A stretch of 64,000 nucleotides of DNA. It comes from Candidatus Zambryskiibacteriota bacterium (GTDB lineage Bacteria > Patescibacteriota > Minisyncoccia > Phycocordibacterales > WO2-35-19). The notes beneath the pieces were generated by a model. That model had not been told where the DNA came from. It worked only from the letters and a program-made list of their open reading frames with translations, and did not search any database. This document shows, one piece after another, positions 9,259 to 55,560 of the stretch; position 1 is the stretch's first letter; every line of letters starts with the position of its first letter. A program made the translations under genes and the position numbers. Location: positions 40,138-104,137 of the forward strand of contig JASNZL010000002.1 in the NCBI GenBank assembly GCA_048499675.1, written 5' to 3'.

Positions 9259-9259
9259 C

Positions 9260-9490: not shown

Positions 9491-9552
9491 TTCATAAATA
9501 CAGTATATGGCAATTTGGAATAATACACAATGGAATATTATTATATAAATAT

Positions 9553-9774: not shown

Positions 9775-9775
9775 C

Positions 9776-10858: not shown

Positions 10859-12436
10859 TTATTGCATTGCTCGCATCATTTCTTTTGCCACAGCTTCAAT
10901 AACAGGAACACTAACGGAATTTCCAGCTTGTTTGTATAGTGCCGAATCAGAAATTTTTGGAAGTTTGTAATTTTTTGGAAAGCCTTGAATTCTAAAACAC
11001 TCTAACGGAGTCAATTTTCGTATACCCTTTTTATCTTTTATGATTGGCACATTATGTCCACCTGTCCCCATGTTTGCAGTTAAAGTTGGGCAAACACCAC
11101 TTTTATTTTCTCTAACATATTGTCTGCGCCATTGATACACTTTACCTTCTTCCTTTACGTCATTTTTTAATCTTTCATATAATGGCTTGCCATTATAGTA
11201 ATATTTTTCAGGCACGTTTTTCTCCAATAGATCGGTTACTTTTTTCGTGAGCTTTATTGGTTTTGGAAACTCAAACTTATCAAAGTAGTTTTTATTTTTG
11301 AACCCTACAATATAGATACGCTCTCGATTTTGTGGCACATTTCCATACTCCATAGTATTTAGAACTTTTGATTTTACAAAGTATCCAAGATCTTCAAGTG
11401 TTTTTTCTATAACCTCAAAAGTTTTCCCCGAATCATGGCTCTTTAGATTTTTTACATTTTCAAGCAAAAAGCCTTCTGGTTTTCGTGCCTCAATGATCCT
11501 TGCAATATCGAAAAATAAATTTCCTCTATCCTTTTTATCTTTAAAGCCGTGCCTATATCCAGCAATAGAAAAAGCTTGGCAAGGGAAACCTCCTAAAAGA
11601 AAATCAAATTTAGGCAAATCATCAATTCCAATTTTTCGTATATCCTCAACTATTAATTTTGAATCTTTAAAATTAAGATCGTATGTATCTTTACATTGTG
11701 GTTCAAAGTCATTAGCAAAAACTGTTTGGAATCCAGCATTTTCAAAACCGATCCTTATCCCTCCTACACCCGCAAATAAATCTATTGTATTAAAACCATG
11801 TTTAGTTTTTTGTTTTGGCTTGAATTCTTCTTCGAACTGTATATTTCTAATTACTTGGACAACAACACCCCGAACTTCAACCTCTTTTCTATAAAATGGG
11901 AGCATTGATTGATTTCTCGGTTCAAGCCTAAACCGTGATTTTTCTCTATACAACTTTTTGAGTGTTGCTTCATTATCATCAATAATTGCAACGACTGTTT
12001 GTCCATTTTCTGCAACAGACTGTTTTTTTATCACAACAACATCTCCGTCAAAAATACCCTCGTCAATCATACTTTCTCCGACAACTCGTAGAGCATAATA
12101 ATCTTTAGAGTTTTGTATATTAGGATCAACAAGAGAGATAAAATCTTCTCGATTTTCTATTGCCTCAATAGGCTGTCCTGCCGCAATATTGCCTAAAATC
12201 GGAATTTCAACAACAGATTTTATTTCTTTCATGAGAGATAAACTTCTTGGAGAATTTTCAGACCTTGAAATATACCCCTTTGCCTCTAGGGAATTGATAT
12301 GCTCGTGAATGGTGGAAACTGCTTTTAGTTTTAGCTCTTTCCTGATCTCTTCAATCGTTGGGGAAATACCATTTTCAGAGATATATGTTTTTATAAAATC
12401 AAAAACCTGTTTTTGCTTTTTTGTAAGTTTAGACAT
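10859..12436 (-). CDS. fusion protein: complete LexA-like repressor (wHTH + S24 peptidase) fused to a Dcm-type DNA cytosine-5 methyltransferase
   Basis: N-terminal ~200 aa is LexA-like: MSKLTKKQKQVFDFIK...EIRKEL...EAKGYI, IAAG cleavage-site context, GESM serine, LKKL lysine, VVAII..ATLKKLYRE. C-terminal ~320 aa has m5C MTase motifs: DLFAGVGG (I), GGFPCQAFSIAG (IV), LLENV (VI), QNRERIY (VIII), GNSVSVPV (X). Confidence 0.8.
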   Translation of the reverse strand: MSKLTKKQKQVFDFIKTYISENGISPTIEEIRKELKLKAVSTIHEHINSLEAKGYISRSENSPRSLSLMKEIKSVVEIPILGNIAAGQPIEAIENREDFISLVDPNIQNSKDYYALRVVGESMIDEGIFDGDVVVIKKQSVAENGQTVVAIIDDNEATLKKLYREKSRFRLEPRNQSMLPFYRKEVEVRGVVVQVIRNIQFEEEFKPKQKTKHGFNTIDLFAGVGGIRIGFENAGFQTVFANDFEPQCKDTYDLNFKDSKLIVEDIRKIGIDDLPKFDFLLGGFPCQAFSIAGYRHGFKDKKDRGNLFFDIARIIEARKPEGFLLENVKNLKSHDSGKTFEVIEKTLEDLGYFVKSKVLNTMEYGNVPQNRERIYIVGFKNKNYFDKFEFPKPIKLTKKVTDLLEKNVPEKYYYNGKPLYERLKNDVKEEGKVYQWRRQYVRENKSGVCPTLTANMGTGGHNVPIIKDKKGIRKLTPLECFRIQGFPKNYKLPKISDSALYKQAGNSVSVPVIEAVAKEMMRAMQ

Positions 12437-12522
12437 ATTGCATTAAAAATTCATTTGCGCTACAATTTCATTGTAACCGAAAAGAAGCCGAAAAGTAAAG
12501 CGAGATTATCCACAATAATATT

Positions 12523-13764
12523 ATGAACGAACATTTTGAAAAATTTATAGATAATATCTCCCTGACTAAAAATCAAAGAGATGATTCTCTTACAAAATAT
12601 ATTGGAATATGCAAAACTCTGAATTCTGAATTCTACAGCTCAGAATATTCTGACTCTGTGAAGTTTTTGTTTGGCTCCTATAAGAAGAAAACAACCATTT
12701 CACATACAGGAAAAGATGTTGATGTTATTTTTAAAATCCCACAAGAAAAATTTGAAGAGTACCAAAAGCAAGAAAATGGACCCTCTAACCTGTTGACCAA
12801 AGTTAAAAATACTCTGAAAGACACTTATTCAACTACAGACAAAATAAAAAATTGGACAAAAGTGGTGGTGGTTGATTTCTCTACTTTTAAGGTAGAGATA
12901 CTCCCTGCGCTTGAAAAAGATGATGGTAAATTTATTGTTCCCAACACTGGAGATGGAGAAGATTGGATTATTTTTGATCCAAAAAGCGAAATAACGAGTT
13001 TTAAAAATTCAAATAACTCAAACAATGGGTTAACAAGAAACTTAATTAAAATTATCAAGAAATGGAAAATTGAAACAGGAAACGTAAATATAAAAACTTA
13101 CATTTTGGATAAGTACGTCATAGATTTTTTGAGTAATTATTCTTTTGCAAGTTATCCGAAAACCATTTTAGATTTTTTTGAATATTTGCATAAAAAAGAA
13201 AGTGGAACAAATATAGAAACAGCAAAAAATAGAGCAAAAAAAGCATATGCTTTTTACGAAGAAAACAATATTGAAAAGGCGGTAGAAGAATATCAAAAAA
13301 TCTTTGTGAATGGTTTCCCTAGAAATATTAAAAAAGAAGTTGGTGACTTTACAGATTACGTTAAAGCTCCAAATGAACAATTCATAGAAGATTTTTTTAG
13401 AGTTTCTTTAGATAAAAAAATAGACATTAATATTGAAACACGATGTAAACCTAAAAAAGGAGGCTTTATGAAGAGCATATTGTTGAGTAGATTACCAAAT
13501 GGTTGGGTATCTAAAAAAGATGATCTTGAGTTCGTTCTTAATACTAAAAACTTATCTGGGGAGTACTTAACTAAATGGAAAGTAAGAAATTTTGGCGAAG
13601 AAGCAACAAGAGATGGTAAACTCAGGGGAGAGATACTTGAGGATAATAATGGGATTCATAAATATAAAGACGGTGCGGCATTTTATGGAGAACATTTTTT
13701 AGAGTGTTACATTATTCAAAATAATATATGTATCGCGAGAAAAAGAGTTGTTGTACCAATATAG
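12523..13764 (+). CDS. pol-beta-superfamily nucleotidyltransferase resembling CD-NTase/SMODS (cGAS/DncV-like)
   Basis: FLFGSYKKKTTISHTGKDVDVIF fits the GS-x(9-13)-DhD signature, with a third acidic strand VVVVDFSTFKVEILPA; 413 aa; followed by a 2-TM partner. Confidence 0.45.
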   Translation: MNEHFEKFIDNISLTKNQRDDSLTKYIGICKTLNSEFYSSEYSDSVKFLFGSYKKKTTISHTGKDVDVIFKIPQEKFEEYQKQENGPSNLLTKVKNTLKDTYSTTDKIKNWTKVVVVDFSTFKVEILPALEKDDGKFIVPNTGDGEDWIIFDPKSEITSFKNSNNSNNGLTRNLIKIIKKWKIETGNVNIKTYILDKYVIDFLSNYSFASYPKTILDFFEYLHKKESGTNIETAKNRAKKAYAFYEENNIEKAVEEYQKIFVNGFPRNIKKEVGDFTDYVKAPNEQFIEDFFRVSLDKKIDINIETRCKPKKGGFMKSILLSRLPNGWVSKKDDLEFVLNTKNLSGEYLTKWKVRNFGEEATRDGKLRGEILEDNNGIHKYKDGAAFYGEHFLECYIIQNNICIARKRVVVPI

Positions 13765-13768
13765 AAAT

Positions 13769-14332
13769 ATGGATAAAAACAATCTATCAATCATAAGGCA
13801 ACAGTTTGCACAATGTGTGTTTACTCACAAGGTCTTGGAAAAGGCTTCTGATAGACTTGAGAAAGTAAATACGAAGATCAAATGGGCTAACGTCATAATT
13901 TTAGCCCTTGTTGTGGTTTTTCTTGTATTGCCAATTAGATTTCCTGAGTACTCATTTTTGAATGATGTCGCTATAGCCATAACAGTCTTTGAAATTTTAT
14001 TTGTCTATTTTCAAAAGGAATTTTCTTTTGAAGAAAAAGCAAAAGATCACAAAAAATTTGCCTTAAAATTTCTAGAGCTTCGTGATAAGTACAAAAATTT
14101 TATTGTTGATATAACAAACGGATTAGATAGTGGAGAAATCAGAACAAAGAGAGACCTTTTACAAGAACAGTATCAGATTATTAGTAGTTTAACCCCACAA
14201 ACTGAGTATATTGACTATAAAGAAGCGCAACTTGCTTTGTTGGGAAAAAATATTTCTGATGAAGAATTTACATGGTCTGACAAAGAGATAGATCGTTTTT
14301 TACCGAAAGAGTTAAGATTCGAAGAAGATTAA
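13769..14332 (+). CDS. small 2-TM protein, candidate SLATT-like effector partnered with the nucleotidyltransferase
   Basis: Two hydrophobic helices (WANVIILALVVVFLVLPI, VAIAITVFEILFVYF) then a charged C-term; overlaps the end of the upstream gene, suggesting coupling; an alternative TTG start lies at 13748. Confidence 0.4.
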   Translation: MDKNNLSIIRQQFAQCVFTHKVLEKASDRLEKVNTKIKWANVIILALVVVFLVLPIRFPEYSFLNDVAIAITVFEILFVYFQKEFSFEEKAKDHKKFALKFLELRDKYKNFIVDITNGLDSGEIRTKRDLLQEQYQIISSLTPQTEYIDYKEAQLALLGKNISDEEFTWSDKEIDRFLPKELRFEED

Positions 14333-14390
14333 AGAGGGTTTCGCTTGCGCGCGCATGGGAGGGTTGGGGCAAGCGCAATATGATTTGCTT

Positions 14391-14426
14391 GTGCCATTCG
14401 TCAGTTTGGCACAATCCGCTTTTTTA
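14391..14426 (+). terminator. rho-independent terminator after the 2-TM gene
   Basis: gtgcca-ttcgtcagtt-tggcac then aatccgctttttt. Confidence 0.5.
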
Positions 14427-14659
14427 GAGTTACCACGAACGCCGTCGAAGTCACAGAGCGAACACGAAGCAAGTACCGAGCAGGCATCGTGAGCGAATGC
14501 GAACGGCAAATGCGAGGTGATTGCGAAGTGTGAGCGGACGACAGAGCTATCACAAAACGCGGAGAGGAAGCGCCTCGCCCGACGCGAATGACGGAGAAAA
14601 GGACGGACGGAATATTGCCACCATGCTAAAATATACATACGAGTCCTTTTTGGAGGAAT

Positions 14660-14795
14660 GAAGCGGCGGAAACAAAACCATAAAATTTCCTTTCATTTTT
14701 TGAGCGGCTCCCCCCACACCCCCCGCCGAAAATGGATAGGTAAGGAAATTTTTGGTTTTGGTTCGCGACCGCAGGGAGCGAGGCGCGCACTGTTC
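14660..14795. repeat. right copy of the inverted hairpin repeat (partner of 9352-9490)
   Basis: ggaaacaaaaccataaaatttcc ... ggaaatttttggttttggttc stem with loop gagcggctccccccacaccccccgccg. Confidence 0.75.
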
Positions 14796-14921
14796 GCTTC
14801 ACCACGCCTGCCTGCGCCGAGGCTTCGGCAGGCAGGCAATCCGAGCGTACGATTTGGGTTCAAAGCCACCACGCGCTCCGCGCGTGCGAAGTGGGTTCGG
14901 GCAAAGGTTAGTATCTCACCG

Positions 14922-15055
14922 CTTGAGCTTCGCGAAAGCGGAGAGTGAGGTCTAGCTTTTGTGCAACAAAAGCGTAAGACGGATTCGAAGCCCGATTGAG
15001 ATTTTTTAGGAGGGCAACGAACTAAAAAATCCAATTGGGGTACTGAAACTGTAAG
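14922..15055 (+). repeat. second copy of the 134-bp tRNA-Ser-downstream element, followed by a tRNA-like 3-prime fragment with encoded CCA (15056-15079)
   Basis: cttgagcttcgcgaaagcggagagtgagg...ggggtactgaaactgtaag, then tttcgactcctgtcccatccacca, which parses as T-loop, T-stem 3-prime, 7-nt acceptor 3-prime, discriminator and CCA. Confidence 0.75.
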
Positions 15056-15094
15056 TTTCGACTCCTGTCCCATCCACCAAGTTTTACATTCAGC

Positions 15095-28555: not shown

Positions 28556-28705
28556 ACGATTTGAATTTTCAATTTTGAATTTTCAATTTTTATTAAATTT
28601 AAAATTTCCAATGTTTCAATTATAACAAAATAAAACAAACAAAAGAAAAAACTTTGTTTATAAATATTAAAAAAACAGATGCTCCACTCTAAAGTAAAAC
28701 ATCTG

Positions 28706-29496: not shown

Positions 29497-29882
29497 TTAT
29501 GAAAAATTATTTGTTAATAAAATAAAAACTACCAACTCTATTCTACCACTTCTCGCCCCGCGATGAGTAAAGCGAATTTTGCGGGGTGTTTAATTACTGA
29601 CATAAGTTTAGTTAAAAATAAATATTAAAAATACCCACTAATCACACGAATTCTCACTAATCTTACTAATAAAAATTTAAGGTGAGCACGAGTTACGAAG
29701 TACGAGATACGATAAAAAATTAAATTTTAAGTTAAAAAGTTAATAATAGGATACAAATAATTATATCATAAAGATATAAGACAAATTATGGTGCCCAAAG
29801 AAAATTAGAACATTGAAAATTCAATGAAAATTGAGAATTTTAAATTAAAAATTTAAAAAGATAATAATTTAGAGAGAAATTA

Positions 29883-30152: not shown

Positions 30153-30479
30153 ATACGAATTAACGAATTTAATAACGAATTGCTACCCGCCCGAAATACT
30201 ATCGTATATAAATGGCGGGCGGGCGAAAACTTTCACATATTAAGTATATCACAATCCCCATTTTTTAGCAAACCCCGTTAGAGATTTTATTTAGATATTT
30301 AGCGGATTAACTATATTTAGAGTCATATTTCCTGCTAATAACAAAAAACGAGAGAATTTAAATCTCTAACGGGACAATCCAAACTTTTAATAAGCGAAGA
30401 GACTATAAAAATTAGGGAAGCTGAGGTAATCCGAAGTGTATTAATTTCCCTTATTTTGAGCCATTTTCTTTCATTTTGC

Positions 30480-30508
30480 TTGACTTTTATATTGAATGGG
30501 TGTATAAT
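30480..30508 (+). promoter_or_regulatory. consensus sigma70 promoter: TTGACT, 17-bp spacer, TATAAT
   Basis: ttgact at 30480-30485 and tataat at 30503-30508 with an exact 17-bp spacer; 23 nt upstream of the first GC-rich cassette gene. Confidence 0.6.
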
Positions 30509-30530
30509 ATATGTAGATAGGTTAACCCCT

Positions 30531-31475
30531 ATGTACAAGCGGTTGGTAGCCCCAACCCTACTTGAAAATCACATACTGGCAACCCCAGAAGAAAGAAAAG
30601 TGAAAATGCCTACCACGATTATGATCGAGAATGGTCCGAAGTTGCAGATGGAAGTTGCAGAGGATTGCGTTGTATTCGCAGGTCGCTGCATCTGCCACCA
30701 GATCAACAAAAACGCCGAGGTCATGATTCAGAAAGCGAAGGCTGCCGGAAAGACCAAAATCGTTATCGTTGGTGACTGCGACGAGCACAACGGAAGAGAA
30801 GGCGAGATGTTGCAAGTGATGTCGGCAGCCGGCATAGAGTGCAAGTGGCTCTATGAAGAGACTTGCTTCTTGCGAGAGGTAATGCCCAACTTCTCACAAA
30901 CTGGCATCCGTCGGTTTGCGGAAGCCGAGGATTTCAGAAAGTTGCGAAACTTGCTCGACAAGATCGGTCGCCGAGTGTGGGACATCAAGCAGAAAATCAA
31001 GCACGAATCCACACTCCTCGCCGAGTACCCAGTGGTCGCGCAGGTTCAAGCAATTGAATCTCACGACCACAACTTCGAGTACGCAGCGGGTGAAGGGACG
31101 ATAGTGTTCAACGCACTTTTCGGCCATCGTGCGAACACTCTTGTCTCTGAAGTGAACTCGGTCGTTTTGTTCAATCTGGAAAACAAAACCGGATTGATCG
31201 TGACCAAGTCGCAGAGGTTCGATTTCTCCTTTGCTAATCCCGATGATTTCGAACTGAACATCTTTCAAGGCAAGGGTAAGAGTCAATTGGAGAGAAAAGG
31301 GTACACACGCGAAGGCTGTGGTTCCATCCGGGTGAATGTGGGTAAGGGCTCAACCGAGCTTTCCATCTACTGCAATCCTGGCGTGTGGACTGTGAAGCCC
31401 CACCCCGAACTCGACGTTACTGACCCAGACGTTCATTACGTCCCCATGTGGAAACGCGTGGAGAAGGTCAAGTAG
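30531..31475 (+). CDS. GC-rich hypothetical protein (foreign composition)
   Basis: ~52% GC against a ~33% background; start placed at the first ATG downstream of the promoter (MYKRLVAPTLL), since the track ORF start at 30456 lies upstream of the -35 box. Confidence 0.5.
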   Translation: MYKRLVAPTLLENHILATPEERKVKMPTTIMIENGPKLQMEVAEDCVVFAGRCICHQINKNAEVMIQKAKAAGKTKIVIVGDCDEHNGREGEMLQVMSAAGIECKWLYEETCFLREVMPNFSQTGIRRFAEAEDFRKLRNLLDKIGRRVWDIKQKIKHESTLLAEYPVVAQVQAIESHDHNFEYAAGEGTIVFNALFGHRANTLVSEVNSVVLFNLENKTGLIVTKSQRFDFSFANPDDFELNIFQGKGKSQLERKGYTREGCGSIRVNVGKGSTELSIYCNPGVWTVKPHPELDVTDPDVHYVPMWKRVEKVK

Positions 31476-31638
31476 CCCGCCAGTATAAAATCCGGTGACG
31501 AGCCGGTGTCCAACTTCGGTTGGGCTTCTACCAAAGTTTTTTAAAAAGAAAATTTTGGTGGGAGTAATCACACAAGCAAGAATACTTACCGTGTGAAAAA
31601 CCAAATTGGGATAGTTCTATTTGGAAAGGAGAAAAGAC

Positions 31639-32055
31639 ATGCCGACCTGGTTGGATATGTTGAGTATTGAAATGGAGAACATGGACGCGACCAAGTTAAT
31701 CGAACCGCCTCACGAGGTGGATCCCAGCCGCGACCACGTTGTTTGCAAAGCCGAAGAAGCTCTTTGCAAGTTGTACAGCTTGGCTATGCAGTTTGAGAAA
31801 GAAGCCAACGTAGCGTTGATTAACGCTCGCTACTCCGGTAATCTCAACGAAATCAAGGATGCCCTTGAAAACGGTGCTCGGCTCATGAAGAAAGTGGAGA
31901 CCCTTCGGGAGATTTTTTGGATCTCCCTGAAGGATAACCACGATCTATGGAACAAGCCTTCCGTCGGCATCCGTCGGGGTTGGAAGGTGGTCTGGAGCGA
32001 TTCGGATCCGATGCCCGATATCCGGGACATCATCAGTGGACTTTTCGGACGCTGA
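31639..32055 (+). CDS. GC-rich hypothetical protein
   Basis: SD ggaaaggag 8 nt upstream of ATG (MPTWLDML...); 139 aa. Confidence 0.5.
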   Translation: MPTWLDMLSIEMENMDATKLIEPPHEVDPSRDHVVCKAEEALCKLYSLAMQFEKEANVALINARYSGNLNEIKDALENGARLMKKVETLREIFWISLKDNHDLWNKPSVGIRRGWKVVWSDSDPMPDIRDIISGLFGR

Positions 32056-33957: not shown

Positions 33958-36141
33958 ATGCAGAAACTAAGTGATTTAAAAAGGCAGTTTTTGGAATATA
34001 TAGAAATTGAGAAAGGTCGTTCGCTTTTAACTATAGAAAACTACGACAGATATTTAACTCGTTTTTTGGAATTTTTGAAAAGCGAAGAACCAAAAGATAT
34101 AAATGACAATTCTGTTAGAGAATTTCGTCTTTGGCTCAATAGACAACCGGCAAGTAAAATAAAGAAAAATGCAGACACCTTGTCTCGTAGAACACAAAAC
34201 TATTATCTAATTGCTCTTCGCGCCTTTCTCAAATATCTTGCAAGACAAGGAGTTACTTCCCTATCGCCCGAAAAGATAGAGCTTGCCAAGACCCCAGAGA
34301 GATCTCTTGACCTAATCACAGACGACGAGCTTATTCGCCTCCTCAAATCCCCTTCTGGCGACAGTTTGAAAAGTTTGCGGGACAGAGCGATGTTACACCT
34401 CCTTTTTTCTACCGGTCTTCGTGTTTCTGAACTTTGTGCTCTTGACCGCGATATAGATTTAAAAAAAGACGAGCATTCTATTCGAGGAAAAGGTGGGAAA
34501 ATAAGGGTGGTTTTCTTTTCGGATGAAGCCAAGAAAGCTTTAAACGATTATTTAGAAAAAAGAAAAGACCTAAACGATGCAATGTTTATCCAACTTTCAA
34601 AAAATTTAAAACCAAATGCAAAAGGCGAAGATATGCGAATAAACAAACGCAGTGTCGCAAGAATTGTAAAACAATACGCCATCAAAGCCGGAATTTCCAA
34701 AAAAGTAACCCCGCATACACTAAGACATTGTCTCCACCCAGATACACTTATTCATTTGCCTTACACCATAACAAGCGCAAGGGAACTATATTTGTCCAAC
34801 ACAAAAAGAATAACATCGGTAGACCTTAATGTTGGGAAAACCGTAAAATCAAACATAATTCAAAAGAGAAAATATAAATCACTTGATATGATTTCTCTTT
34901 CTGCTAATGGTTATCAAATTTCTGTTACTCCAGACCACAAATTTTTTACTCTTGGAACAGATGGAATAGTGGAAATTAATGCAAGAGATATAAAGAAAAA
35001 TCAATTCATTGCTGGTGTTAAGAAAATAACAATGAATAGTTCAAAAAAATCAAGAAGTAAAAACAATTGGAGAATAATTGGTTATATTTTGGAGGATGGA
35101 ACAATAAGTGAGAAGAGGCGGGGGGTCATAATTTCTGATAAGAATCCAACTTTTATAGAATTTTATAAAGATTTAATTACTTCAGAATATAAACATAAAC
35201 CAACAATAAAAAAAATAGAAGGCGCAAATAATGTTATTTTAAATTTTTATTCAAAACAATTTGTTACTTATTTGAGAAAAATAGGAATAACAGAGAAATC
35301 ACCTCTCAGAAGAGTTCCTAAAATTTTATTCTCCCAAAGCAAAGAAGTTATAGCAGAATTTTTGGCTGGATATTACGACGCTGAAGGAAATGAGGGTAAT
35401 TCTATTAAATTTTTCTCTTCAAGTGAAATGCTTTTGCGAGATATTCAAATGTTATTATTAACTTTCGGGATTGATTCTCATTTATATAAAAGATTGAGGA
35501 GAGTAAAACTACCAAAAGGAAAAATTATAAGCCACAAAATGTTATATCTACAAATATTACACAAACCAGATCAGGAACTTTTTATTAAGATTGTTCCCAC
35601 CCTAAAAAAATTAAAAGCAAAAAGCTTTTTTGCAGGGGATAAAATTCCAGTCAGAAATATGTTAAAAGACATATATATAAATCTACCAAAAAAATGGCAC
35701 AATTTTGCTCAATATCTAAAAATAGATGGGAAAATTGATATATATAGATATGTTGGTAACACAACCAAAACAGTCCCCACAAAGAAAGTTTTGGAAAAGA
35801 TAATCAAATATTTTAGAGATGCTAAATGTAATGACCCGAGATTAGATTTTATGCAAAAACTCATTGATTCTGATATTCAGTGGCTTAGGGTTCAAAAAGT
35901 TGAAAGGTGTAAATATAATGGACCAGTATATGATTTCGCTGTAAATAAATATGAGAATTTAATAACAAACGGTTTTTTGTCGCACAACTGTTTTGCGACT
36001 GACCTTTTAAGCAATGGTGCTGATCTTCGCTCCGTTCAAGCTCTACTCGGCCACGCAAATATAGGCACAACTCAAGTTTACACCCATGTCACAGACCGCC
36101 ACCTCCGCGACATCCACAAAAAATTCCATAACAAAAAGTAA
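33958..36141 (+). CDS. XerC/XerD-family tyrosine recombinase interrupted by a 420-aa intein with LAGLIDADG homing endonuclease
   Basis: N-terminal SAM-like domain, catalytic region ...[19 protein letters not shown]...TPHTLRH, then CLHPD...[11 protein letters not shown]...[13 protein letters not shown]...GFLSHN, then [34 protein letters not shown]. The host exteins sum to ~307 aa. Confidence 0.85.
34729..35988 (+). mobile_element. intein (Cys1 ... His-Asn, then +1 Cys) with two LAGLIDADG motifs
   Basis: 1260 nt in frame; begins TGT directly after HTLRH and ends CAC AAC directly before TGT TTT GCG ACT. Confidence 0.8.
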
Positions 36142-40328: not shown

Positions 40329-41912
40329 TTAAGCCACGGAATGCTTGTTTCTAATTTGCTTGATTATTTTTTCTTCTTCTTTTTCTCTCTTCTCTTTACC
40401 CTTTTCTGACATTTTTTTTAGTTCACCTTCTGGCAATTTACTTAGTTCAATTACTCTATTTTCTAAATACTCTTTTGTGTTTAGTTTTGGATCATCTAGT
40501 ATTTCCTCCAATAAAGCATTCAGAATTTGTCCTATTATAGGCCCAGGTTTTACATCCAATAATTCCATTATTCTTTGACCATTAACTTTTAACATTCCAA
40601 CAGAAATCGGATCAGCCATTACCTCTTCTATCATGGCTTGATATTTTCTTAGTCTATACGGATTCTCTTTTGGTCTACCTGTTCCTATTCTGTCACAGTG
40701 CCTAATATTTATTAAATCCCAAACGTTTTCTTTACCAACATTAGATATCATCCTTCTCACCGCAGAATGTGTAATTTGTGCTGTATCTGAGAAAAACATA
40801 TGCCACCTTACCAATTTTGAAACGCGCTCAATTGTTTCACGTGAAAATTTAAGATTCTCTAATATCGCCTTAGTTACACGTGAACCAATTACTTCATGGC
40901 CATAAAATGTCCATTGCTTAGCTTCCTGATCGAACCTTCTACTTGCCGGTTTTGATATGTCATGAAATAGTGCAGATAGTCTCACGTGTAACGGAAAATT
41001 TTTGTCTGCAGAATGTTGAACTGTTTTGATTAAATGAGTCCATACATCATAAGAATGCGCCTTATTTTGCTCAATTCCTATGGTGTCCTCAAGCTCTGGT
41101 ATTACATATGTTAGAACTCCAAGTTTTCTCATTAACTCCAAACCTCCACTTGGATTTGGCGACATTATAATCTTTATAAACTCATCTCTAATCCTTTCTT
41201 TTGAGATAGATTTCAAAATATCCTTATTTTCCAATATTGCTTTCTCAGTCTCTGAATCAATTACAAAACCTAGTTCCACGTGAAATCTAATTGCTCTTAG
41301 TATCCTTAGACCATCTTCATAAAATCTATCTTTTGGGTTGCCAACTGTTTTAATAATTCCTCTAGCCAAATCTGCAACCCCATAAAAAGGATCTATTATT
41401 TCACCCGTATCTGTATCATACGCTATGGAATTTATTGTAAAATCACGCCTCTTTAGATCATCCTCTATCTTATCGCTGAATTTAACACTGTCAGGCCTTC
41501 TATGGTCAGAATAAGCGCCCTCTATTCTATACGGCGTTATTTCTATAACTTTTAAGCTATTATCTCTCAATTTATCATTACTATTGGAATTTAAGCTTTC
41601 CGACTCATTTGTTACATGTGTAACCAAAGAGCCTTCTTCATGGCCTACATCCTCGGTGAATTCGTCAGATTCCTCGACAACGGCTACTGTACCGAAATTA
41701 TTCTCATACACAGTCTTGGGGAAAAGCAGAATAATCTCCTCCGGCTTAGCATTTGTTGTAACATCCCAATCTTTTGGTTTTCTACCCATAAACAAATCTC
41801 TGACACAACCACCAACCAAATATGCCTCAAAACCAGCGTTTTTGAGGACAGATGTTACACGCGAAACCTTTTCGGGTATATCAAATTTTTGTATTTTTAC
41901 ACTATTGTCCAT
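40329..41912 (-). CDS. cca: CCA-adding enzyme / tRNA nucleotidyltransferase with HD domain
   Basis: YLVGGCVRDLFMG...DWDVTT (pol-beta head), RRDFTINSIAYD, HD domain HDISK; cotranscribed orientation with the two upstream tRNAs. Confidence 0.8.
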   Translation of the reverse strand: MDNSVKIQKFDIPEKVSRVTSVLKNAGFEAYLVGGCVRDLFMGRKPKDWDVTTNAKPEEIILLFPKTVYENNFGTVAVVEESDEFTEDVGHEEGSLVTHVTNESESLNSNSNDKLRDNSLKVIEITPYRIEGAYSDHRRPDSVKFSDKIEDDLKRRDFTINSIAYDTDTGEIIDPFYGVADLARGIIKTVGNPKDRFYEDGLRILRAIRFHVELGFVIDSETEKAILENKDILKSISKERIRDEFIKIIMSPNPSGGLELMRKLGVLTYVIPELEDTIGIEQNKAHSYDVWTHLIKTVQHSADKNFPLHVRLSALFHDISKPASRRFDQEAKQWTFYGHEVIGSRVTKAILENLKFSRETIERVSKLVRWHMFFSDTAQITHSAVRRMISNVGKENVWDLINIRHCDRIGTGRPKENPYRLRKYQAMIEEVMADPISVGMLKVNGQRIMELLDVKPGPIIGQILNALLEEILDDPKLNTKEYLENRVIELSKLPEGELKKMSEKGKEKREKEEEKIIKQIRNKHSVA

Positions 41913-41965
41913 ATTTTATAAATTTAATCCTTAGATCAACTTCTTCTGCTGACATCAAACTTTTG

Positions 41966-42037
41966 CGCGCCCGCCAGGATTCGAACCCAGAATAACGGTT
42001 CCGAAGACCGCTGTGATATCCATTTCACCACGGGCGC
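41966..42037 (-). tRNA. tRNA-Arg (anticodon TCG)
   Basis: Reverse complement GCGCCCG-TG-GTGA-AATGGAT-ATCAC-A-GCGGT-CTTCGGA-ACCGT-TATT-CTGGG-TTCGAAT-CCTGG-CGGGCGC. Confidence 0.7.
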
Positions 42038-42097
42038 GTAAATAAATAGTAACACTTATTCAGTATAATTAATACAAAATATAAGTGCTTTAATGTG

Positions 42098-42168
42098 TGC
42101 GGTCAGGGGGAATCGAACCCCCATCTCAGTCTTGGCAAGACCGTATTTTACCACTAAATTATGACCGC
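42098..42168 (-). tRNA. tRNA-Gly (anticodon GCC)
   Basis: Reverse complement GCGGTCA-TA-ATTT-AGTGGTA-AAAT-A-CGGTC-TTGCCAA-GACTG-AGAT-GGGGG-TTCGATT-CCCCC-TGACCGC-A. Confidence 0.8.
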
Positions 42169-42460
42169 TTCAAGTATAAAAATATACTTGTATATAATTT
42201 AGCATAAATATTTTTATTAACAAAATCAACTTTTGGATAAAAATGACAAATCATACCAAAAGACTAAAAGTATTATAGAATTTACGAACAAAAAGTAATA
42301 TAATTAACTTAGTGTCTTTATGGTCTAGTAGACCTTATTTATCAACATAACTGTGGATAACTTTGGGGACACTGTGTATAAGTCAAAGTCAATAGATTTA
42401 ATATATGGCTTAAAATAAGGATTTATTGAAAAGACAGACTTTTACACAGTCCTATAATTA

Positions 42461-42901
42461 TTGACACAATTTTATATGGCATTACACAACGAACTAGGGG
42501 AAATGGGGGAGAATATTGCTTCTAATTTTCTTATAAATAAAGGTTTTAAACTGATAGAAAGGAACCATAATAGAAAATGGGGAGAGATAGATATAATTCT
42601 ACACAAAGACAAAAGACTACATTTTGTTGAAGTCAAAACAGTAAAAAGACAGTCAGTAAATGGATTTTTTGAGCAACCAATGACAAACACATTATCAAAA
42701 AGCAAAAATGAGATAAGACCCGAGGAAAATATGCACATTCACAAAGTTAAAAGATTGAAACGAGTTATTGAGACATACTTGCTTGAAAATAAACACAAAT
42801 GGGGAAGTGAGGTGGTTTGGCAGTTTGATTTGGTATGTGTTTATGCTGATCCAGATAAAAAAGTGGCTAAGGTAAGTATTATGCAAAATCTTATATTATA
42901 A
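42461..42901 (+). CDS. YraN-family (UPF0102) PD-(D/E)xK endonuclease-like protein
   Basis: GE.IA..FL..KGF.LIERN.R...GEIDII......LHFVEVKT. Confidence 0.7.
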   Translation: MTQFYMALHNELGEMGENIASNFLINKGFKLIERNHNRKWGEIDIILHKDKRLHFVEVKTVKRQSVNGFFEQPMTNTLSKSKNEIRPEENMHIHKVKRLKRVIETYLLENKHKWGSEVVWQFDLVCVYADPDKKVAKVSIMQNLIL

Positions 42902-42966
42902 GCTTAGAGCTTGAAGCTAACCTGCCTGCCGGCGAGGCAGGGGGCTTAGAGAAAAAGAAACATTGT

Positions 42967-42985
42967 TTCGGAGTGCCGAGAATCG
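42967..42985. repeat. 19-bp duplicate of the tRNA-Pro 3-prime end, 138 bp from the gene copy (43104-43122)
   Basis: ttcggagtgccgagaatcg occurs twice; the intervening ~120 bp has the same hairpin architecture as the element after tRNA-Ser, and the junction again reads cctgtaagg. Confidence 0.75.
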
Positions 42986-43104
42986 TTCCTTACAGGAACA
43001 GTGCAGGTTTCCTATTTATTCGGACAAAGTCCTCATAAATAAAGGAGAACCTTTTCGATTCTCGGACGCAAGCAAAGTAGTTTGCTTGCTCATCCTCACT
43101 ACGT

Positions 43105-43175
43105 TCGGAGTGCCGAGAATCGAACTCGGACCTAACGCTCCCAAAGCGTTTATACTACCACTATACTACACTCCG
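43105..43175 (-). tRNA. tRNA-Pro (anticodon TGG)
   Basis: Reverse complement CGGAGTG-TAG-TATA-GTGGTAG-TATA-AACGC-TTTGGGA-GCGTT-AGGT-CCGAG-TTCGATT-CTCGG-CACTCCG-A; the junction between acceptor and D-arm is slightly irregular. Confidence 0.6.
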
Positions 43176-47945: not shown

Positions 47946-48545
47946 TTGAATTCACTAAATCAAATGAACAAATATATTATTTATACAGACGGTTCATCGA
48001 GAGGGAATCCAGGTAGGGGAGGATGGGCTGTCATCATTATTGAAAATAATGATGACAGCAAATTCCAAATTACACCTGTCCAGCGAAGCTTCAGCGTAGT
48101 TGGAAATGACACCTGCCTGCCGGCAAGGCAGGAATTACAAATAAAAGAATTAGGTGGGAGGGAAGAGATGACAACGAATAACAGGATGGAGATGACTGCA
48201 AGTATTGAGGGACTGAAGAACACACCAGAGAATTGTGAAGTAGAAATTTATACTGATTCAGAATATTTGATGAAAGGCATAACTCTCTGGATTTATAATT
48301 GGCAAAAAAATAACTGGAGGACCAAAGACAAGAAAGATGTTTTGAACAAGGATTTGTGGTTACAACTTTTGGAAGAGACACAAAAAAGAAAAGTGGTTTG
48401 GAAAAAAGTTTTAGGACATTCAGGAGACAAGTTAAATGATAGATGTGACGAGATTGCTACAAGCTTTGCAGACAACAAAAGTATTGTCCTATATAATGGC
48501 TTAAAACAAGACTATTTTTTGTTTCACCAAAACAGAGAAAAATAG
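47946..48545 (+). CDS. rnhA: ribonuclease HI carrying an in-frame GC-rich palindromic insertion
   Basis: YTDGSSRGNPGRGGWAVII...TTNNRMEMTA...YTDSEYL...GHSGD..NDRCDE; an extra ~25-aa segment (SFSVVGNDTCLPARQELQIKELGGRE) encoded around the hairpin at 48112-48132. Confidence 0.8.
   Translation: MNSLNQMNKYIIYTDGSSRGNPGRGGWAVIIIENNDDSKFQITPVQRSFSVVGNDTCLPARQELQIKELGGREEMTTNNRMEMTASIEGLKNTPENCEVEIYTDSEYLMKGITLWIYNWQKNNWRTKDKKDVLNKDLWLQLLEETQKRKVVWKKVLGHSGDKLNDRCDEIATSFADNKSIVLYNGLKQDYFLFHQNREK
48112..48132. repeat. GC-rich palindrome CCTGCC-TGCCGGCAA-GGCAGG (also at 42921-42942 and 14808-14837)
   Basis: Three copies of the cctgcctgc...ggcagg hairpin in an AT-rich genome, one of them inside the rnhA CDS. 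Confidence 0.7.
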
Positions 48546-48572: not shown

Positions 48573-50054
48573 ATGATTTACTTAAATGTTGTTTCATTTG
48601 CGATAGGAATTTTTTTAAAAGACTACTTCAATATTAGCTGGAGTAGTTTTTTGTTTATGGTTTTGATTGGTATTGTCTCTCTCCTTATCTTGAGAGAAAA
48701 AAAGTATTACAAATTTATAATATGTATTTTGTTTTTGACTCTTGGATTTTTTAGGATGCAAATCACAAATTCTTCCCCTGACCAAACATTACTACAAAAC
48801 ACAGGTATAGCATTTTCATTTGATGCTGTTGTAATCGAGGAGCCGGATATACGTGACAGCGGTACTCGTTACACAATCAAACCAATAGAGTACGAAAGTC
48901 TGATACTTTTGGTTGCCGATAGATTTCCTGAATTGAAATACGGAGACAAAATAAAAGTAGAAGGAAAAATTGAATTACCTAAAAATTTTATTACTGAAAC
49001 AGGCAATGAGTTTGATTACATTTCTTTCTTATCAAAAGATAAAATTCATTTTTTGATTTATAGACCAAAGATAGAAAAAATTGAAGAAGGAGAAGCAAAC
49101 GTATTGGTTGGCGCACTTTATAAACTCAAAAATAATTTTATAGAAAATATTGGAAGTGTTGTGAGAGAACCCGACTCATCACTTCTGGCTGGACTTATAT
49201 TTGGAGTGAAGCAATCTTTGGGACAAGACCTTCTGGATAATTTCAAAAAGGTCGGACTTGTTCACATCATTGTTCTCTCAGGTTACAACATTACAATCGT
49301 TGCGATGGCAATTCTTTATGTAACTGCTTACACTGGGAAAAGAACTTTGGGATTTATTTTGGCTGGAATTGGAATTGTACTTTTTGCAATTATGGTTGGT
49401 CTTGGTGCGACTGTGGTGAGAGCAAGTGTGATGGCTCTAATTGCAATTATTGCGAGACACTTAGGCAGACCGTCAGACGCTTTGCGTGCTCTATTTGTGG
49501 CCGGCTTCTTGATGCTTCTCTGGAATCCACTCACACTTATTCGCGATCCATCTTTTCAACTTTCCTTTAGTGCAACACTTGGTTTAATTTTGTACTCACC
49601 ATTTGTATACAATTTTGTTTCAGAAAAAATACCCGTGGTGACAGAAAAGCTTGGACTCCGAGAAATTCTTTCTTCAACTTTTGCAGTACAACTTTTTGTT
49701 TTACCACTTCTAACAAAAATGTCGGGAGTGGTTTCGATAATTTCTTTTATTGTTAATTTGATTGTTTTGCCTCTCGTTCCTTTTGCAATGTTTTTTGGAT
49801 TTCTCACTGGACTTTTAGGATTCATTCCACTCTTAGGAGTGCCCCTTTCGTGGATAGCAGGAATAGTTGCATTTGTATTTACTAAAATAATAATTACTGT
49901 GACAGAAATTGGAGCAAGTGTGCCATTTGCAGTTTTAAAAACTGGCACACTTCCACTATTCGGAATAATAGTTTGGTATCTGGTTTATGCTTTTGTTTAT
50001 TTAAAAATAAAAAAATTAAAACCAGCAAACAAAATTAATAGCAACACAATTTAA
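48573..50054 (+). CDS. comEC: ComEC/Rec2-family competence protein, N-terminal DUF4131 plus channel domain only (no MBL domain)
   Basis: LLAGLIFGVKQSLGQDLLDNFKKVGLVHIIVLSGYNITIV and 8+ TM helices; the MBL domain is encoded separately at 51351-52265. Confidence 0.7.
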   Translation: MIYLNVVSFAIGIFLKDYFNISWSSFLFMVLIGIVSLLILREKKYYKFIICILFLTLGFFRMQITNSSPDQTLLQNTGIAFSFDAVVIEEPDIRDSGTRYTIKPIEYESLILLVADRFPELKYGDKIKVEGKIELPKNFITETGNEFDYISFLSKDKIHFLIYRPKIEKIEEGEANVLVGALYKLKNNFIENIGSVVREPDSSLLAGLIFGVKQSLGQDLLDNFKKVGLVHIIVLSGYNITIVAMAILYVTAYTGKRTLGFILAGIGIVLFAIMVGLGATVVRASVMALIAIIARHLGRPSDALRALFVAGFLMLLWNPLTLIRDPSFQLSFSATLGLILYSPFVYNFVSEKIPVVTEKLGLREILSSTFAVQLFVLPLLTKMSGVVSIISFIVNLIVLPLVPFAMFFGFLTGLLGFIPLLGVPLSWIAGIVAFVFTKIIITVTEIGASVPFAVLKTGTLPLFGIIVWYLVYAFVYLKIKKLKPANKINSNTI

Positions 50055-51350: not shown

Positions 51351-52265
51351 ATGGAAAGGAGGTTTAAAATAAAAATAGCTATTTTTTCTATTTTGTTTTT
51401 AGGAGCAATTTTCTCTTTATACTTTGCAAATAGAGAAAGCAGAGCAGGGATTTTGACTGTTGCCTTCCTTGATGTAGGACAAGGGGACGCTATATTTATT
51501 GAAGCTCCAAACGGTAATCAAATGCTTGTTGATGGCGGGATTGGCAGGGGAGTGCTCCGTGAGCTCGGTAAAGCTATGCCTTTTTATGACAAAAGTATTG
51601 ATGTAGTAGTCGCAACTCATCCGGATGCTGACCACATAGGAGGATTAAATGATGTTTTAGGGAGATATAAAGTTGATTTATTTATGGAGAGCGGAGTTAT
51701 TTCTGATACTAGTTTTTATAAAGAATTAGAATCCAGAATTCTGAATCTTGAATCAAAAGGGAGAATAAAAAAGATGGAAGCAAGAAGTGGGATGATTGTA
51801 GATTTTGGCGGGGGAGTGTTTTTTGAAATCCTTTATCCTATATATGACACGGAAGGAATGGAGAGCAATAGTGCTTCAATAGTCGGGCGACTTGTTTATG
51901 GCGAAAATTCATTTATGCTCACCGGCGATTCACCCAAAAACATAGAGGAGTACTTAGTTTCTTTGGAGTGCCGAGGGCAACCCTTAATGTGCCCCGGTCC
52001 CAAAGGGTTGCCCTCGGCACTGAAGAGCAATGTATTAAAAGCCGGACATCACGGCTCAAAAACTTCCACTTCTGAAGCTTTTGTTGGAGCTGTTGCTCCA
52101 GAATACGCAGTCATTTCTGCCGGAAAAGACAACCGCTACGGTCATCCTCACCAAGAAGTTTTGGACACTCTAGAAAAATTTAACGTTCAAGTATTAAACA
52201 CCGCCGATTTAGGGAGAATTATATTTAAGAGTGATGGAAATAAAATTAACCTAATTTCTAATTAA
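51351..52265 (+). CDS. ComEC-type MBL-fold domain protein with an in-frame GC-rich hairpin insertion
   Basis: AFLDVGQGDAIFIEAPNGNQMLVDGG...THPDADHIGGL...LKAGHHGSKTS; inserted segment LECRGQPLMCPGPKGLPSALKS encoded by a 17-bp-stem GC hairpin. Confidence 0.7.
   Translation: MERRFKIKIAIFSILFLGAIFSLYFANRESRAGILTVAFLDVGQGDAIFIEAPNGNQMLVDGGIGRGVLRELGKAMPFYDKSIDVVVATHPDADHIGGLNDVLGRYKVDLFMESGVISDTSFYKELESRILNLESKGRIKKMEARSGMIVDFGGGVFFEILYPIYDTEGMESNSASIVGRLVYGENSFMLTGDSPKNIEEYLVSLECRGQPLMCPGPKGLPSALKSNVLKAGHHGSKTSTSEAFVGAVAPEYAVISAGKDNRYGHPHQEVLDTLEKFNVQVLNTADLGRIIFKSDGNKINLISN
51967..52021. repeat. GC-rich 17-bp-stem hairpin inside the MBL CDS (agtgccgagggcaaccc / gggttgccctcggcact)
   Basis: ~65% GC palindrome in an AT-rich gene; shares the 11-mer ggagtgccgag with the tRNA-Pro 3-prime repeat. 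Confidence 0.7.
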
Positions 52266-52633: not shown

Positions 52634-52788
52634 AGTGGACATTATGCTATCATAAGACTTGTATAAAGACAAGTAATTTTTAATTTAAAATTTTTAATTT
52701 TCATTCAATTTTCAATGTTTTAATATTTGAAAATTAAATAATTAAGACATTTATTGGAAATTCTAAATTGAAAATTGAAAATTAATAT

Positions 52789-55159: not shown

Positions 55160-55187
55160 TCTTTCAAACAAACTCTCGCCATTCCAA

Positions 55188-55560
55188 CTTGTGAGCGGGC
55201 CTGCCCATGCCACCAATTTTGGTATCTTAAATATTGCAACATATATAACTCGCTAGTTATGGGATAGGTCACCAATATCGAACACTCGAAACAAAGAAAA
55301 GGGTCGTATTGCAATAATACCAAAATTAGTGAGCGTGCCTGCCCATGCCACCAATTTTGGTATCTTCTTGTAGAAACACCAAGGAGAGTATTGATTTGGG
55401 TATATCGCCAGATCCAATGTGGCGCAATGTTTTAATATGTAATCTTTCTACAATACCAAAATTAGTGAGCGGGGATTGACCCGTAGTGAATTTTGGCATT
55501 GGTTATAAACCATGCACTTCGTGCCATGCCAAAATCTACTACGGGGTTGCTTTTTTCTCC
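55188..55560 (+). repeat. structured repeat in the rpsL leader (partner of 8585-8850) with an internal ~135-bp tandem duplication and a terminal hairpin plus T tract
   Basis: Two gtgagcgNgcctgcccatgccaccaattttggtatctt modules (55190 and 55323), then aataccaaaattagtgagcggggattgacccgtagtgaattttggcat...atgccaaaatctactacggggttgcttttttc. Confidence 0.75.

Follow-up and report, generated by a model that had tools for sequence, protein, structure and literature searches.

Tiny GC-rich hairpin repeats within the reading frames of rnhA and a ComEC-like gene in a Candidatus Zambryskiibacteriota bacterium

Introduction

In this study we analysed a stretch of 64,000 nucleotides (nt), referred to below as the window, from a Candidatus Zambryskiibacteriota bacterium (GenBank assembly GCA_048499675.1, contig JASNZL010000002.1, positions 40,138 to 104,137 of the forward strand), in which two protein-coding genes harbor short GC-rich palindromes within their open reading frames (ORFs). 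The first palindrome, of 21 nt, is located in rnhA, the gene for RNase HI, and the second, of 55 nt, in a gene for a metallo-beta-lactamase (MBL)-fold protein which is a stand-alone homologue of the ComEC C-terminal domain. We consider it likely that they represent two unrelated families of tiny, non-coding, GC-rich hairpin repeats which have spread by insertion in this AT-rich genome and its relatives, and of which a few copies have survived inside genes. This reading draws on the polarity and the exact boundaries of an insertion, the presence of multiple copies within and across genomes, the nesting of copies in other repeats, the location of the inserts in disordered protein loops and the covariation of the hairpin arms. 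The 21-nt element (the 21-mer) appears to rank among the smallest mobile DNA elements described so far. A preliminary description of the same DNA had drawn attention to the two in-frame palindromes, an observation that is confirmed here, and had interpreted them as insertions, which is supported by the sequence comparisons described below. Palindromic repeats residing in frame within genes have been known before; what is new is the host group, the extreme smallness of the unit together with an exact pair of filled and empty sites and, above all, the recurrence of the 21-mer across phyla with a behaviour resembling that of the small dispersed repeats (SDRs) of Nostoc.

The window, with a GC content of 35%, was compared to a set of 217 loci, which are labelled by L-numbers where they have to be told apart. 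L002 is an independent assembly from the same species with 98.9% DNA identity to the window, L219 and L001 are syntenic contigs with 88-94% identity, and L003 is a syntenic contig with 80-86% identity. Exact matches to the 21-mer were sought in one genome per GTDB species (596 Gb in total), and the statistics per copy refer to the matches listed. Rfam, applied to the whole window at gathering threshold, identified tRNAs only.

The 21-nucleotide element in rnhA

The rnhA gene (47964-48545, plus strand; Pfam RNase_H, E 5e-41) encodes a protein of 193 amino acids, while most of its closest homologues, which are found in Zambryskibacteria/Paceibacterota-type bacteria of the candidate phyla radiation (CPR), have 157-172. 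At 48112-48132 (plus strand) the gene contains the GC-rich hairpin element CCTGCCTGCCGGCAAGGCAGG, across which the reading frame remains open. The site is occupied in the window and in L002, both of which read GGAAATGACA-[21-mer]-AATTACAAA, and is empty to the base in L001 and L219, where GGAAATGACA|AATTACAAA are joined as GGAAATGACAAATTACAAA. The upstream 52 nt and the downstream 16 nt are 100% identical in all four loci, and the element can be delimited unambiguously; the target was neither duplicated nor deprived of any bases. The 21-mer splits a lysine codon (A|AA) and thereby converts K to TCLPARQE, a net gain of seven residues. In an alignment of 22 RnhA sequences, TCLPARQ is confined to the window and the same-species copy and is missing from the other homologues. 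Outside of the insert, the proteins of the window and L219 are identical at 177 of 186 positions (95%), and the 21-mer is the sole indel of at least 6 nt in coding sequence within the aligned regions of about 10 kb (L001), 16 kb (L219) and 18 kb (L003). Because the close relatives show a base-exact empty site and the orthologues lack the corresponding residues, the 21-mer in rnhA is a derived insertion, recent and exact. The fold itself is modest, a 7-bp stem with a 7-nt loop and a DNA folding z-score of only -2.2, so that this palindrome is notable for its recurrence and not for its stability. Between the upstream ORF6N gene and rnhA, the window also carries a 31-nt insertion relative to L001 and L219 (47910-47940), which can fold into a GTCGTG...CACGAC hairpin and may be a terminator.

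The element accounts for a minor part of the enlarged protein loop. The preliminary description had assigned a loop of some 25 residues to the surroundings of the palindrome. The extra loop in fact spans residues ~29-58, and only 7 of about 30 extra residues, TCLPARQ, derive from the palindrome, which is indeed in frame; the stretch LQIKELGGRE, which had been counted as part of the insert, is the conserved beta3 strand of RNase HI. A further ~51 nt belong to an older loop expansion (48051-48111, plus strand; DDSKFQITPVQRSFSVVGND), which is non-palindromic, lies outside the mobile element and is shared by L001, L002 and L219, while it is missing from L003, L004 and more distant homologues. Because this segment is older than the 21-mer, the 25-residue loop of the preliminary description merges two events. 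We also considered that the older segment might be a decayed hairpin and rejected this idea, as it folds no better than shuffled sequences (z-scores between -0.7 and +0.4) and is not repeated elsewhere, its core 16-mer matching only the orthologous rnhA genes of L001 and L002 among the 217 loci.

Solved structures of E. coli RNase HI align on both sides of the insert. In an AlphaFold2 model based on the family alignment, the core is predicted with a local confidence score (pLDDT) above 90, residues 29-58 are unstructured and placed between beta2 and beta3, and the pLDDT falls below 50 at residues 37-55. The same loop varies in length among RnhA homologues. Thus, the 21-mer adds seven residues to a surface loop of RNase HI that is predicted to be disordered.

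Copies of the 21-mer in the window and across phyla

A second copy of the 21-mer within the window is intergenic (42921-42941, plus strand), 20 nt downstream of a UPF0102 gene. It is a G variant, CCTGCCTGCCGGCGAGGCAGG, with a single difference in the loop (G for A), and zero matches to the 21-mer are expected in shuffles of the window. L219 has an orthologous copy at the same site in the form CCCGCCTGCCGGCGAGGCAGG, and the intergenic copy therefore predates the insertion in rnhA. A CCCGCC variant of the 21-mer recurs in two other CPR loci, L172 and L215. The preliminary description had listed the intergenic element together with a second one as copies of the same motif. This is correct for the former apart from the loop difference; the latter (14807-14836, plus strand; DNA fold -16.7 kcal/mol, z = -3.4), which lies in the GC-rich flank of a tRNA-Ser island, shares only its 9-nt arms CCTGCCTGC...GCAGGCAGG, encloses a different 12-nt centre and is a variant, not the same motif. 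Overall, the window has 14 GC-rich perfect hairpins as compared to 1-6 in Markov shuffles, an excess of about 5-fold, and several of those in the window resemble ordinary terminators. A similar 5-fold excess of GC-rich mini-hairpins over shuffles is seen at the loci carrying the 21-mer.

The expectation that further copies would exist was borne out in the window, in its relatives and far beyond them. The exact 21-mer occurs in at least 120 stretches from GTDB species representatives of many phyla, while by our own estimate, assuming uniform base composition, about 0.5 matches would be expected by chance in 596 Gb. The hosts include Bacteroidota, among them the cultured Arenibacter sp. P308M17 and Hyunsoonleella flava T58, metagenome-assembled genomes (MAGs) of low GC content assigned to 'Gammaproteobacteria', many CPR classes, Omnitrophota and Planctomycetota, and also Elusimicrobia, Nitrospirae, Spirochaetia, Ignavibacteria and others. 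The sequences surrounding the element are unrelated between loci, and 14-mers common to at least eight loci consist of the element and one or two flanking bases only. With regard to the immediate flanks, position -1 is a purine in 117 of the 124 listed copies (94%), and GAT occupies positions +1 to +3 in 20 of 130 (2.3 expected).

The breadth of this distribution might raise the suspicion of a sequencing or assembly artefact, that is, of a synthetic or k-mer-sized (k = 21) sequence in metagenome assemblies, as most of the listed matches are from MAGs and 21 nt is a common first k-mer size. However, the insertion at the rnhA site is seen in both the NCBI contig and Logan SRR33243635, which are independent data sets, L219 has a substitution in its orthologous intergenic copy, and reading frames and homology continue across the element. 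In addition, the 21-mer is found in cultured isolates, and sequence variants, tandem copies and inverted doublets exist. An artefact is thus hardly credible.

Among the 123 listed copies for which this was scored, 54 (~44%) are located in long ORFs that extend for 40 codons or more to either side. The host genes are unrelated to each other, and 72% of the listed coding copies use two of the six possible frames, yielding LPAG[KE]AG or PA[LS]PAGR, which fits a filter acting on the encoded peptide. All six frames of the 21-mer are free of stop codons, a property shared by 60% of composition-matched shuffles and by 4.7% of 21-mers of genome composition. In comparison with solved structures, the LPAGKAG residues of a Saccharibacteria SHMT and a Paceibacterota TsaD fall into an alignment gap.

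Furthermore, the 21-mer is repeatedly associated with other small repeats. Fifteen of 134 listed copies (11%) reside inside tandem arrays of 7-nt units, whose repeat period continues unbroken across the element (21 = 3 x 7). Variants include a perfect 20-mer, tandem triplets and inverted doublets, and a back-to-back doublet is present on the viral contigs L128 and L133. Nested copies were observed in L006, L064, L079 and L096: in L006, a 'Gammaproteobacteria' MAG, the 21-mer occupies the exact centre of a 31-nt CCCnACTTCGCCAAG|GCTACG element, which occurs in L219 without the 21-mer, and in the other three loci it resides inside GTCATTGCGAG...CAATGAC hairpins.

Three further ideas on the origin and spread of the 21-mer were tested and rejected. 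Viruses are not supported as vectors, given only 10 matches in 2.9 million viral contigs. A longer parent element with CCTGCCTG...CAGGCAGG as its ends, for instance an autonomous transposon, was not recovered, as the search returned chance pairs and short variants only. Insertion at the centre of existing hairpins was dismissed, since abutting complementary flanks are not enriched relative to random positions, although nesting of the 21-mer in larger, imperfect hairpins does occur.

Other short GC-rich sequences are also shared between distant genomes. The 31-nt element CCCAACTTCGCCAAGGCTACGAGTGGGCAAG is present as an exact insertion in L219 (6171-6201) relative to the window (equivalent position 42993), with near-identical copies in L006 (there with the 21-mer in its centre), L093 and L135, and looks like a second ultra-small repeat common to several phyla. 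Two GC-rich words, CTTCGACAAGCTCAGG (18 matches) and GTCATTGCGAG...GAAGCAATC (40 matches), recur in unrelated phyla, often as arms of larger hairpins, and are also present at loci that carry the 21-mer; loci with such words include L003, L023, L033, L038, L047, L052, L064, L070, L096, L106, L116 and others.

The hairpin family of the MBL gene

The second in-frame palindrome is situated at 51967-52021 (plus strand) within the MBL gene (51351-52265, plus strand; Pfam Lactamase_B). The 55-nt hairpin, with the loop AATGTGCCCCGGTCCCA, encodes CRGQPLMCPGPKGLPSA and leaves the reading frame open, so that, as had been stated before, both ORFs are intact. It consists of a perfect stem of 19 bp, and not of 17 bp as originally given, and a 17-nt loop; its predicted folding energy as DNA is -25.5 kcal/mol (z = -7.4), and none of 200 shuffles folds as well. 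Among 120 MBL homologues the span between the TGD and HHGS motifs ranges from 32 to 58 residues, and the loop often holds two cysteines. All distant homologues (<56% identity) have the short-loop form, and the solved ComEC MBL domains have 12 residues fewer at the hairpin site. Because of these short-looped homologues and structures, and because the same hairpin family occurs elsewhere in related genomes, the MBL insert is derived as well. Lineage-specific insertion, as proposed in the preliminary description, is thus borne out by orthologue alignment for both genes. An AlphaFold2 model of the MBL protein places residues 207-221 in a loop (pLDDT <50) between a helix (196-207) and a strand (228-231); accordingly, both inserts are modelled in loops of low confidence within otherwise confident folds.

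The family to which this hairpin belongs is characterized by arms of the type (C)AAGGnnnnnCCTT(G), a variable outer stem and a semi-conserved loop, GAACTGCCCCGGTCCCA. A covariance model of the family (R1) matches the window at 51966-52023 with 78 bits, the sole copy there, and describes a co-varying helix of 19 bp with a loop of about 17 nt like GAACTGCCCCGGTCCCA, which is present at more than one genomic site. Beyond the copies used for training, R1 identified matches in L166, L188 and L216 (two). The hairpins of the window and of L216 have the same loop, are clearly homologous and differ at two fully compensated base pairs. In L139 the same element resides, in frame and in the opposite orientation, in the loop between the first and second transmembrane segments of comEC, and related copies are found at that position in L216 and L166. 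L216 harbors four copies in 21 kb, including intergenic ones at 18081 and 2354 after the genes for EF-G and TIM, and in L188 a copy is nested inside another palindrome. In a family alignment of nine copies (A6), 93% of the cells are paired, and 14 of the 19 pairs have changed on both sides with few G-U pairs; none of 500 shuffles attained the observed value in four of the five measures, 22 of 500 did so for the count of further pair types, and slid controls scored far lower. Applied to 729 kb from other phyla, the covariance model detected no copy. As judged by these comparisons, the family is dispersed, clade-restricted with copies only in related CPR genomes, and unrelated to that of the 21-mer.

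At the MBL site itself, insert-bearing genes have stems of 15-21 bp with differing sequence, and opposite loop orientations occur. The peptide types CQGQPLNCPGPKGLPL and QSRTFGTGAVQSPTL appear to represent the same DNA element family read in opposite orientations; the reading of the reverse strand was computed for the window hairpin and is observed in L139. Template switching is an established source of perfect palindromes, and one might ask whether the palindromes were made in place from neighbouring sequence by replication template switching (snap-back or quasipalindrome formation) with no mobile element involved. This could explain arms that are complementary yet differ between lineages, as well as opposite loop orientations at the same site. 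Such a process can, however, yield neither the same arm-plus-loop element in comEC and the intergenic DNA of other genomes nor an identical 21-mer in at least 120 genomes at sites unrelated to each other, and the empty or short alleles contain no counterpart to an arm of either hairpin. As the origin of the 21-mer, local template switching is refuted by this recurrence, and as an explanation of the palindromes in general we regard it as improbable.

Covariation in the stems would also fit selection on structure, and the repeats might thus be functional nucleic-acid motifs, such as terminators, mRNA stabilisers or protein-binding sites, whose genic copies are regulatory and not parasitic. Several intergenic copies are in fact located just downstream of genes (that at 42921 and the two in L216), T-runs follow some copies of the 21-mer (L005, L009, L024, L061), and repetitive extragenic palindromic (REP) elements are known to serve such roles (PMC3733652). 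On the other hand, the copies in rnhA and the MBL gene lie in the middle of genes with no T-run after them, near-identical relatives do without the rnhA element and show no other change in that gene, the MBL hairpin decays between close relatives without compensation, the host genes are unrelated, and Rfam holds no matching family. A regulatory function is quite unlikely to be the general explanation, and domestication of some intergenic copies would still be compatible with a spread by insertion.

Finally, it might be argued that the loops are ancestral or adaptive, with residues selected for protein function and the palindromy of the DNA being incidental. Both the beta2-beta3 loop of RNase HI and the MBL loop vary in length, the latter often with its two cysteines, and the older 51-nt part of the rnhA loop is a true non-palindromic expansion; for this segment (48051-48111) selection of a protein loop is the best reading. 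Peptide selection cannot, however, account for a perfect 19-bp stem or for a 21-mer that occurs in intergenic DNA as well as in unrelated genes. Moreover, disorder is predicted for the inserts, and the frame and orientation in which the same DNA is translated differ between hosts. This explanation is refuted for the two palindromic segments, and as an account of the finding as a whole it is very improbable.

The preliminary description had further noted that the MBL stem shares GGAGTGCCGAG with the 3' repeat of a tRNA-Pro gene. The match is real: the 11-mer occurs at 42970-42980 (plus strand), at 43107-43117 inside tRNA-Pro (43105-43175) and at 51965. Because, of the former two sites, one is the 3' end of the tRNA and the other a duplicate of that end, there is one independent coincidence, and hairpin-family members in other genomes do not have the outer stem that holds GGAGTGCCGAG. 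We therefore rejected the link, which is probably due to chance. The tRNA-Pro gene itself is inverted relative to L001 and L003, an arrangement common to L219, and positions 42969-42985 hold a 17-nt duplicate of its 3' end, pointing to an earlier integration or inversion event at the tRNA.

The MBL gene is one half of a split ComEC: the DUF4131/Competence membrane part (48573-50054) and the nuclease-like MBL part (51351-52265) are encoded by separate genes, between which a gene for an RNA polymerase alpha-CTD-like protein and sodA lie on the opposite strand. The arrangement is conserved in L001, L003, L215, L216 and L219. L215, which carries the single-arm MBL palindrome, has a gene for an RVT_1 reverse transcriptase (768-1805) two genes upstream of recJ.

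Relation to known repeats

The closest known kinds to these hairpins are the SDRs of Nostoc, REPs and Rickettsia palindromic elements (RPEs). According to the account given by Elhai in 2008, the SDR1-8 families of Nostoc and Anabaena are reportedly hairpin units of 21-27 nt with compensatory changes and little sequence similarity between families; they are also said to be embedded in tandem heptamer repeats and nested in one another or in small transposon-like repeats. Similarly, the 21-mer is a unit of 21 nt with a predicted hairpin, occurs in arrays of heptamer period (the 15 of 134 listed copies described above) and is nested in other small repeats at four loci (L006, L064, L079, L096); its entry into rnhA was likewise exact and left no duplication, and compensatory stem changes are seen in the MBL family. 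In contrast to SDRs, its hosts are CPR/Paceibacteria and many non-cyanobacterial phyla, and in-frame coding copies are prominent. SDR5 inside HIP1 is presented as a precise insertion with no obvious duplication (PMC4390886), and SDRs are reported to be confined to Nostocaceae (PMC5861425); further papers citing the SDR work are PMC2884548 and PMC3116915. The 21-mer would thus be, at most, a new family of the SDR kind, to which it is likened by its behaviour.

As in REPs, we find GC-rich imperfect palindromes of 20-40 nt that are dispersed across genomes, presumably non-autonomous and in some cases arranged as inverted doublets. REPs are mostly intergenic, with some residing inside the ORFs of known proteins (PMC3733652), and REP/REPIN elements are mobilised by REP-associated tyrosine transposases (RAYTs) of the HUH Y1 type (PMC3733652, PMC3116915). 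Unlike REPs, the 21-mer has no GTAG or CGTC tetranucleotide at either end, there is no RAYT gene among the ORFs of the window, and the sequence is identical across phyla whereas REP families are normally specific to species or genera. With RPEs, the elements share in-frame insertion into surface positions with intact ORFs, a similarity in behaviour and not family membership. RPEs have lengths of approximately 100-150 bp and are restricted to Rickettsia; the present elements measure 21 and 55 nt, differ in sequence and reside in CPR-type hosts. They also do not have the CGTC in which RPEs end (PMC3733652). Thus, the analogy to RPEs made in the preliminary description holds for the outcome and not for size, sequence or tag, and SDRs and REPs are closer.

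Yeast mitochondrial GC clusters, with lengths of 30-50 bp, in-frame copies in var1, nesting and a reported target duplication, are by description also similar, being short GC-rich palindromes scattered in an AT-rich genome; they differ in having a eukaryotic organelle as host. Bacterial MITEs (miniature transposable elements with inverted repeats) duplicate their target. The hairpins resemble MITEs and elements derived from IS200/IS605 in being presumably non-autonomous with an inverted-repeat or hairpin architecture, and the IS200/IS605 type in particular in inserting without target duplication beside a short preferred sequence, which for the 21-mer amounts to only a purine at -1 and a weak preference for GAT at +1 to +3. 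They are unlike MITEs in the lack of a duplication at the rnhA site and in their lengths of 21 and 55 nt. MITEs measure 70-300 bp and possess terminal inverted repeats (PMC3733652), the 21-mer being several-fold smaller.

With respect to novelty, which had been claimed for CPR-type genomes, a literature search for CPR in combination with palindromic or MITE repeats found no account in CPR genomes, a text search for the 21-mer and two other shared GC-rich words returned nothing relevant, and none of the papers found to cite Elhai 2008 concerned CPR or Bacteroidota. In-frame REPs were already known outside of Rickettsia (PMC3733652), so that the phenomenon as such is not novel.

Other features of the window

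The tRNA-Ser gene (9037-9125) marks a probable integrated defence island (9037-15070), with direct repeats of 151 nt and 97% identity that include the tRNA 3' end (9118-9268, 14915-15065) and GC-rich inverted repeats of 132 nt (9364-9495, 14658-14789). The island encodes a fusion of a LexA-S24 peptidase with a C5 cytosine methylase (10859-12436), a SMODS nucleotidyltransferase that has an AGS-C sensor (12523-13764), and also a SLATT effector (13748-14332); the latter pair looks like a cyclic-oligonucleotide-based anti-phage signalling system (CBASS). A XerC/D-type tyrosine recombinase of 727 amino acids (33958-36141) contains an intein with a LAGLIDADG homing-endonuclease domain, while its orthologue in L003 has 307 amino acids and no intein.

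A MITE-like family with the terminal inverted repeats CCNGTAGTRAAWWTTGGCAT...ATGCCAAAAT is represented at 8621-8840 and 55186-55547 and in L001 at 10270-10407; the 138-nt copy in L001 lies just upstream of the gene for an M50 peptidase (equivalent position 52789) and is not present at that site in the window. AT-rich repeats, whose units are of the TTTTCAATTT / AATTTTGAAA type and recur every 7-8 nt or so, are located between genes, e.g. rpmB and the M50 peptidase gene (1100-1169, 1980-2049, 2754-2811, 7100-7169, 7744-7855, 28561-28630, 29797-29862, 52672-52784), and may be promoter regions or kin of the heptamer arrays that host the 21-mer elsewhere. Two adjacent ORFs of 339 and 144 amino acids (30456-32055), in a patch of 40-50% GC that greatly exceeds the 35% of the genome, have no match in Pfam or Rfam, including a permissive Rfam search of 29.9-32.6 kb, and were probably acquired horizontally. 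At ~41000-43000, gene orientation turns from mostly minus to mostly plus and the cumulative GC skew reaches a minimum near 42 kb, which could reflect a replication origin or a plain boundary between divergent gene orientations; no dnaA was seen nearby.

Discussion

Based on these data, a sequence of events might be proposed. The 21-nt unit CCTGCCTGCCGGCRAGGCAGG was inserted precisely into a lysine codon of rnhA, with neither duplication nor base loss, after the lineage of the window had split from those of L219 and L001. The likely source would be the older copy 5 kb upstream or another copy in the genome. Its toleration is attributed to the length of 21 nt (3 x 7), to the lack of stop codons in all six frames and to its location at the tip of the beta2-beta3 hairpin, an already variable and disordered surface loop. 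The 55-nt hairpin of the MBL gene represents an older insertion from the clade-restricted family. Both elements would be non-autonomous and moved in trans by a hairpin-recognising machinery, and copies arriving in coding sequence would then be filtered by selection on frame and loop tolerance. Among the possible routes, a cut-and-insert mechanism on single-stranded DNA by HUH/Y1-type enzymes (RAYT or IS200/IS605-like; 'peel and paste') is preferred because it fits the hairpin, the missing duplication and a flank preference that is asymmetric, and is put forward tentatively, as we regard it as rather doubtful that precisely this route is the correct one. An RNA or reverse-transcriptase intermediate, which Elhai et al. 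are said to have proposed for the SDRs of Nostoc, and templated repair synthesis are further candidate routes.

Several points weigh against a spread of two mobile families. Among the 53 ORFs of the window scanned with Pfam there is no transposase, RAYT or reverse transcriptase, and logos as well as 3- and 4-mer counts of the flanks of 124-130 listed copies disclosed no GTAG or CGTC tag. The copy number is low, with two copies and one variant of the 21-mer and one copy of the MBL family in 64 kb; the activity of the elements in this genome is sporadic. The exact boundaries and the lack of duplication were read from one filled/empty site, compared in two relatives. Changes of the MBL hairpin in place among close relatives are uncompensated (one broken pair in L002, two in L003), and because of this the arms may regain their complementarity through re-insertion or template switching instead of selection. 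That distant phyla have an identical 21-mer is not easily accounted for by ordinary vertical copy-and-paste and would need either a tight constraint imposed by the machinery or frequent horizontal transfer. The scan for the 21-mer covered exact matches only, and the diversity of the family and its abundance per genome may differ from what appears here.

We further considered whether the 21-mer might be a member of a domain-wide class of GC-rich hairpin 'nano-elements' of ~20-30 nt, present letter for letter in CPR, Bacteroidota, Omnitrophota and Planctomycetota and served by a widely distributed trans-acting machinery. Other candidate members would be CTTCGACAAGCTCAGG, GTCATTGCGAG...GAAGCAATC and CCCnACTTCGCCAAGGCTACG..., and such elements would insert precisely and without duplication in one another, in heptamer arrays and in coding sequence. 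We hold this to be a serious possibility, somewhat short of an even chance. If true, the SDR phenomenon of Nostoc would no longer be a peculiarity of cyanobacteria; it would represent a general layer of bacterial mobile DNA that is essentially undescribed and that steadily supplies protein loops with seven-residue insertions.

The rnhA allele represents a clean, dated case of a 21-nt mobile unit entering an essential gene, with filled and empty alleles in genomes whose RnhA proteins are ~95% identical. CPR-type genomes, which are deemed streamlined and repeat-poor, accordingly contain dispersed hairpin repeats by which protein loops are remodelled. These repeats give rise to spurious 'hypothetical protein' fragments and can mislead alignments and structure-based annotation, and they could also serve to mark very recent divergence. 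The occurrence of an identical 21-mer in at least 120 species implies either that horizontal spread is very frequent or that a conserved machinery makes strict demands on the sequence, and finding this machinery would explain a class of repeats that has been known since 2008 without a mechanism.

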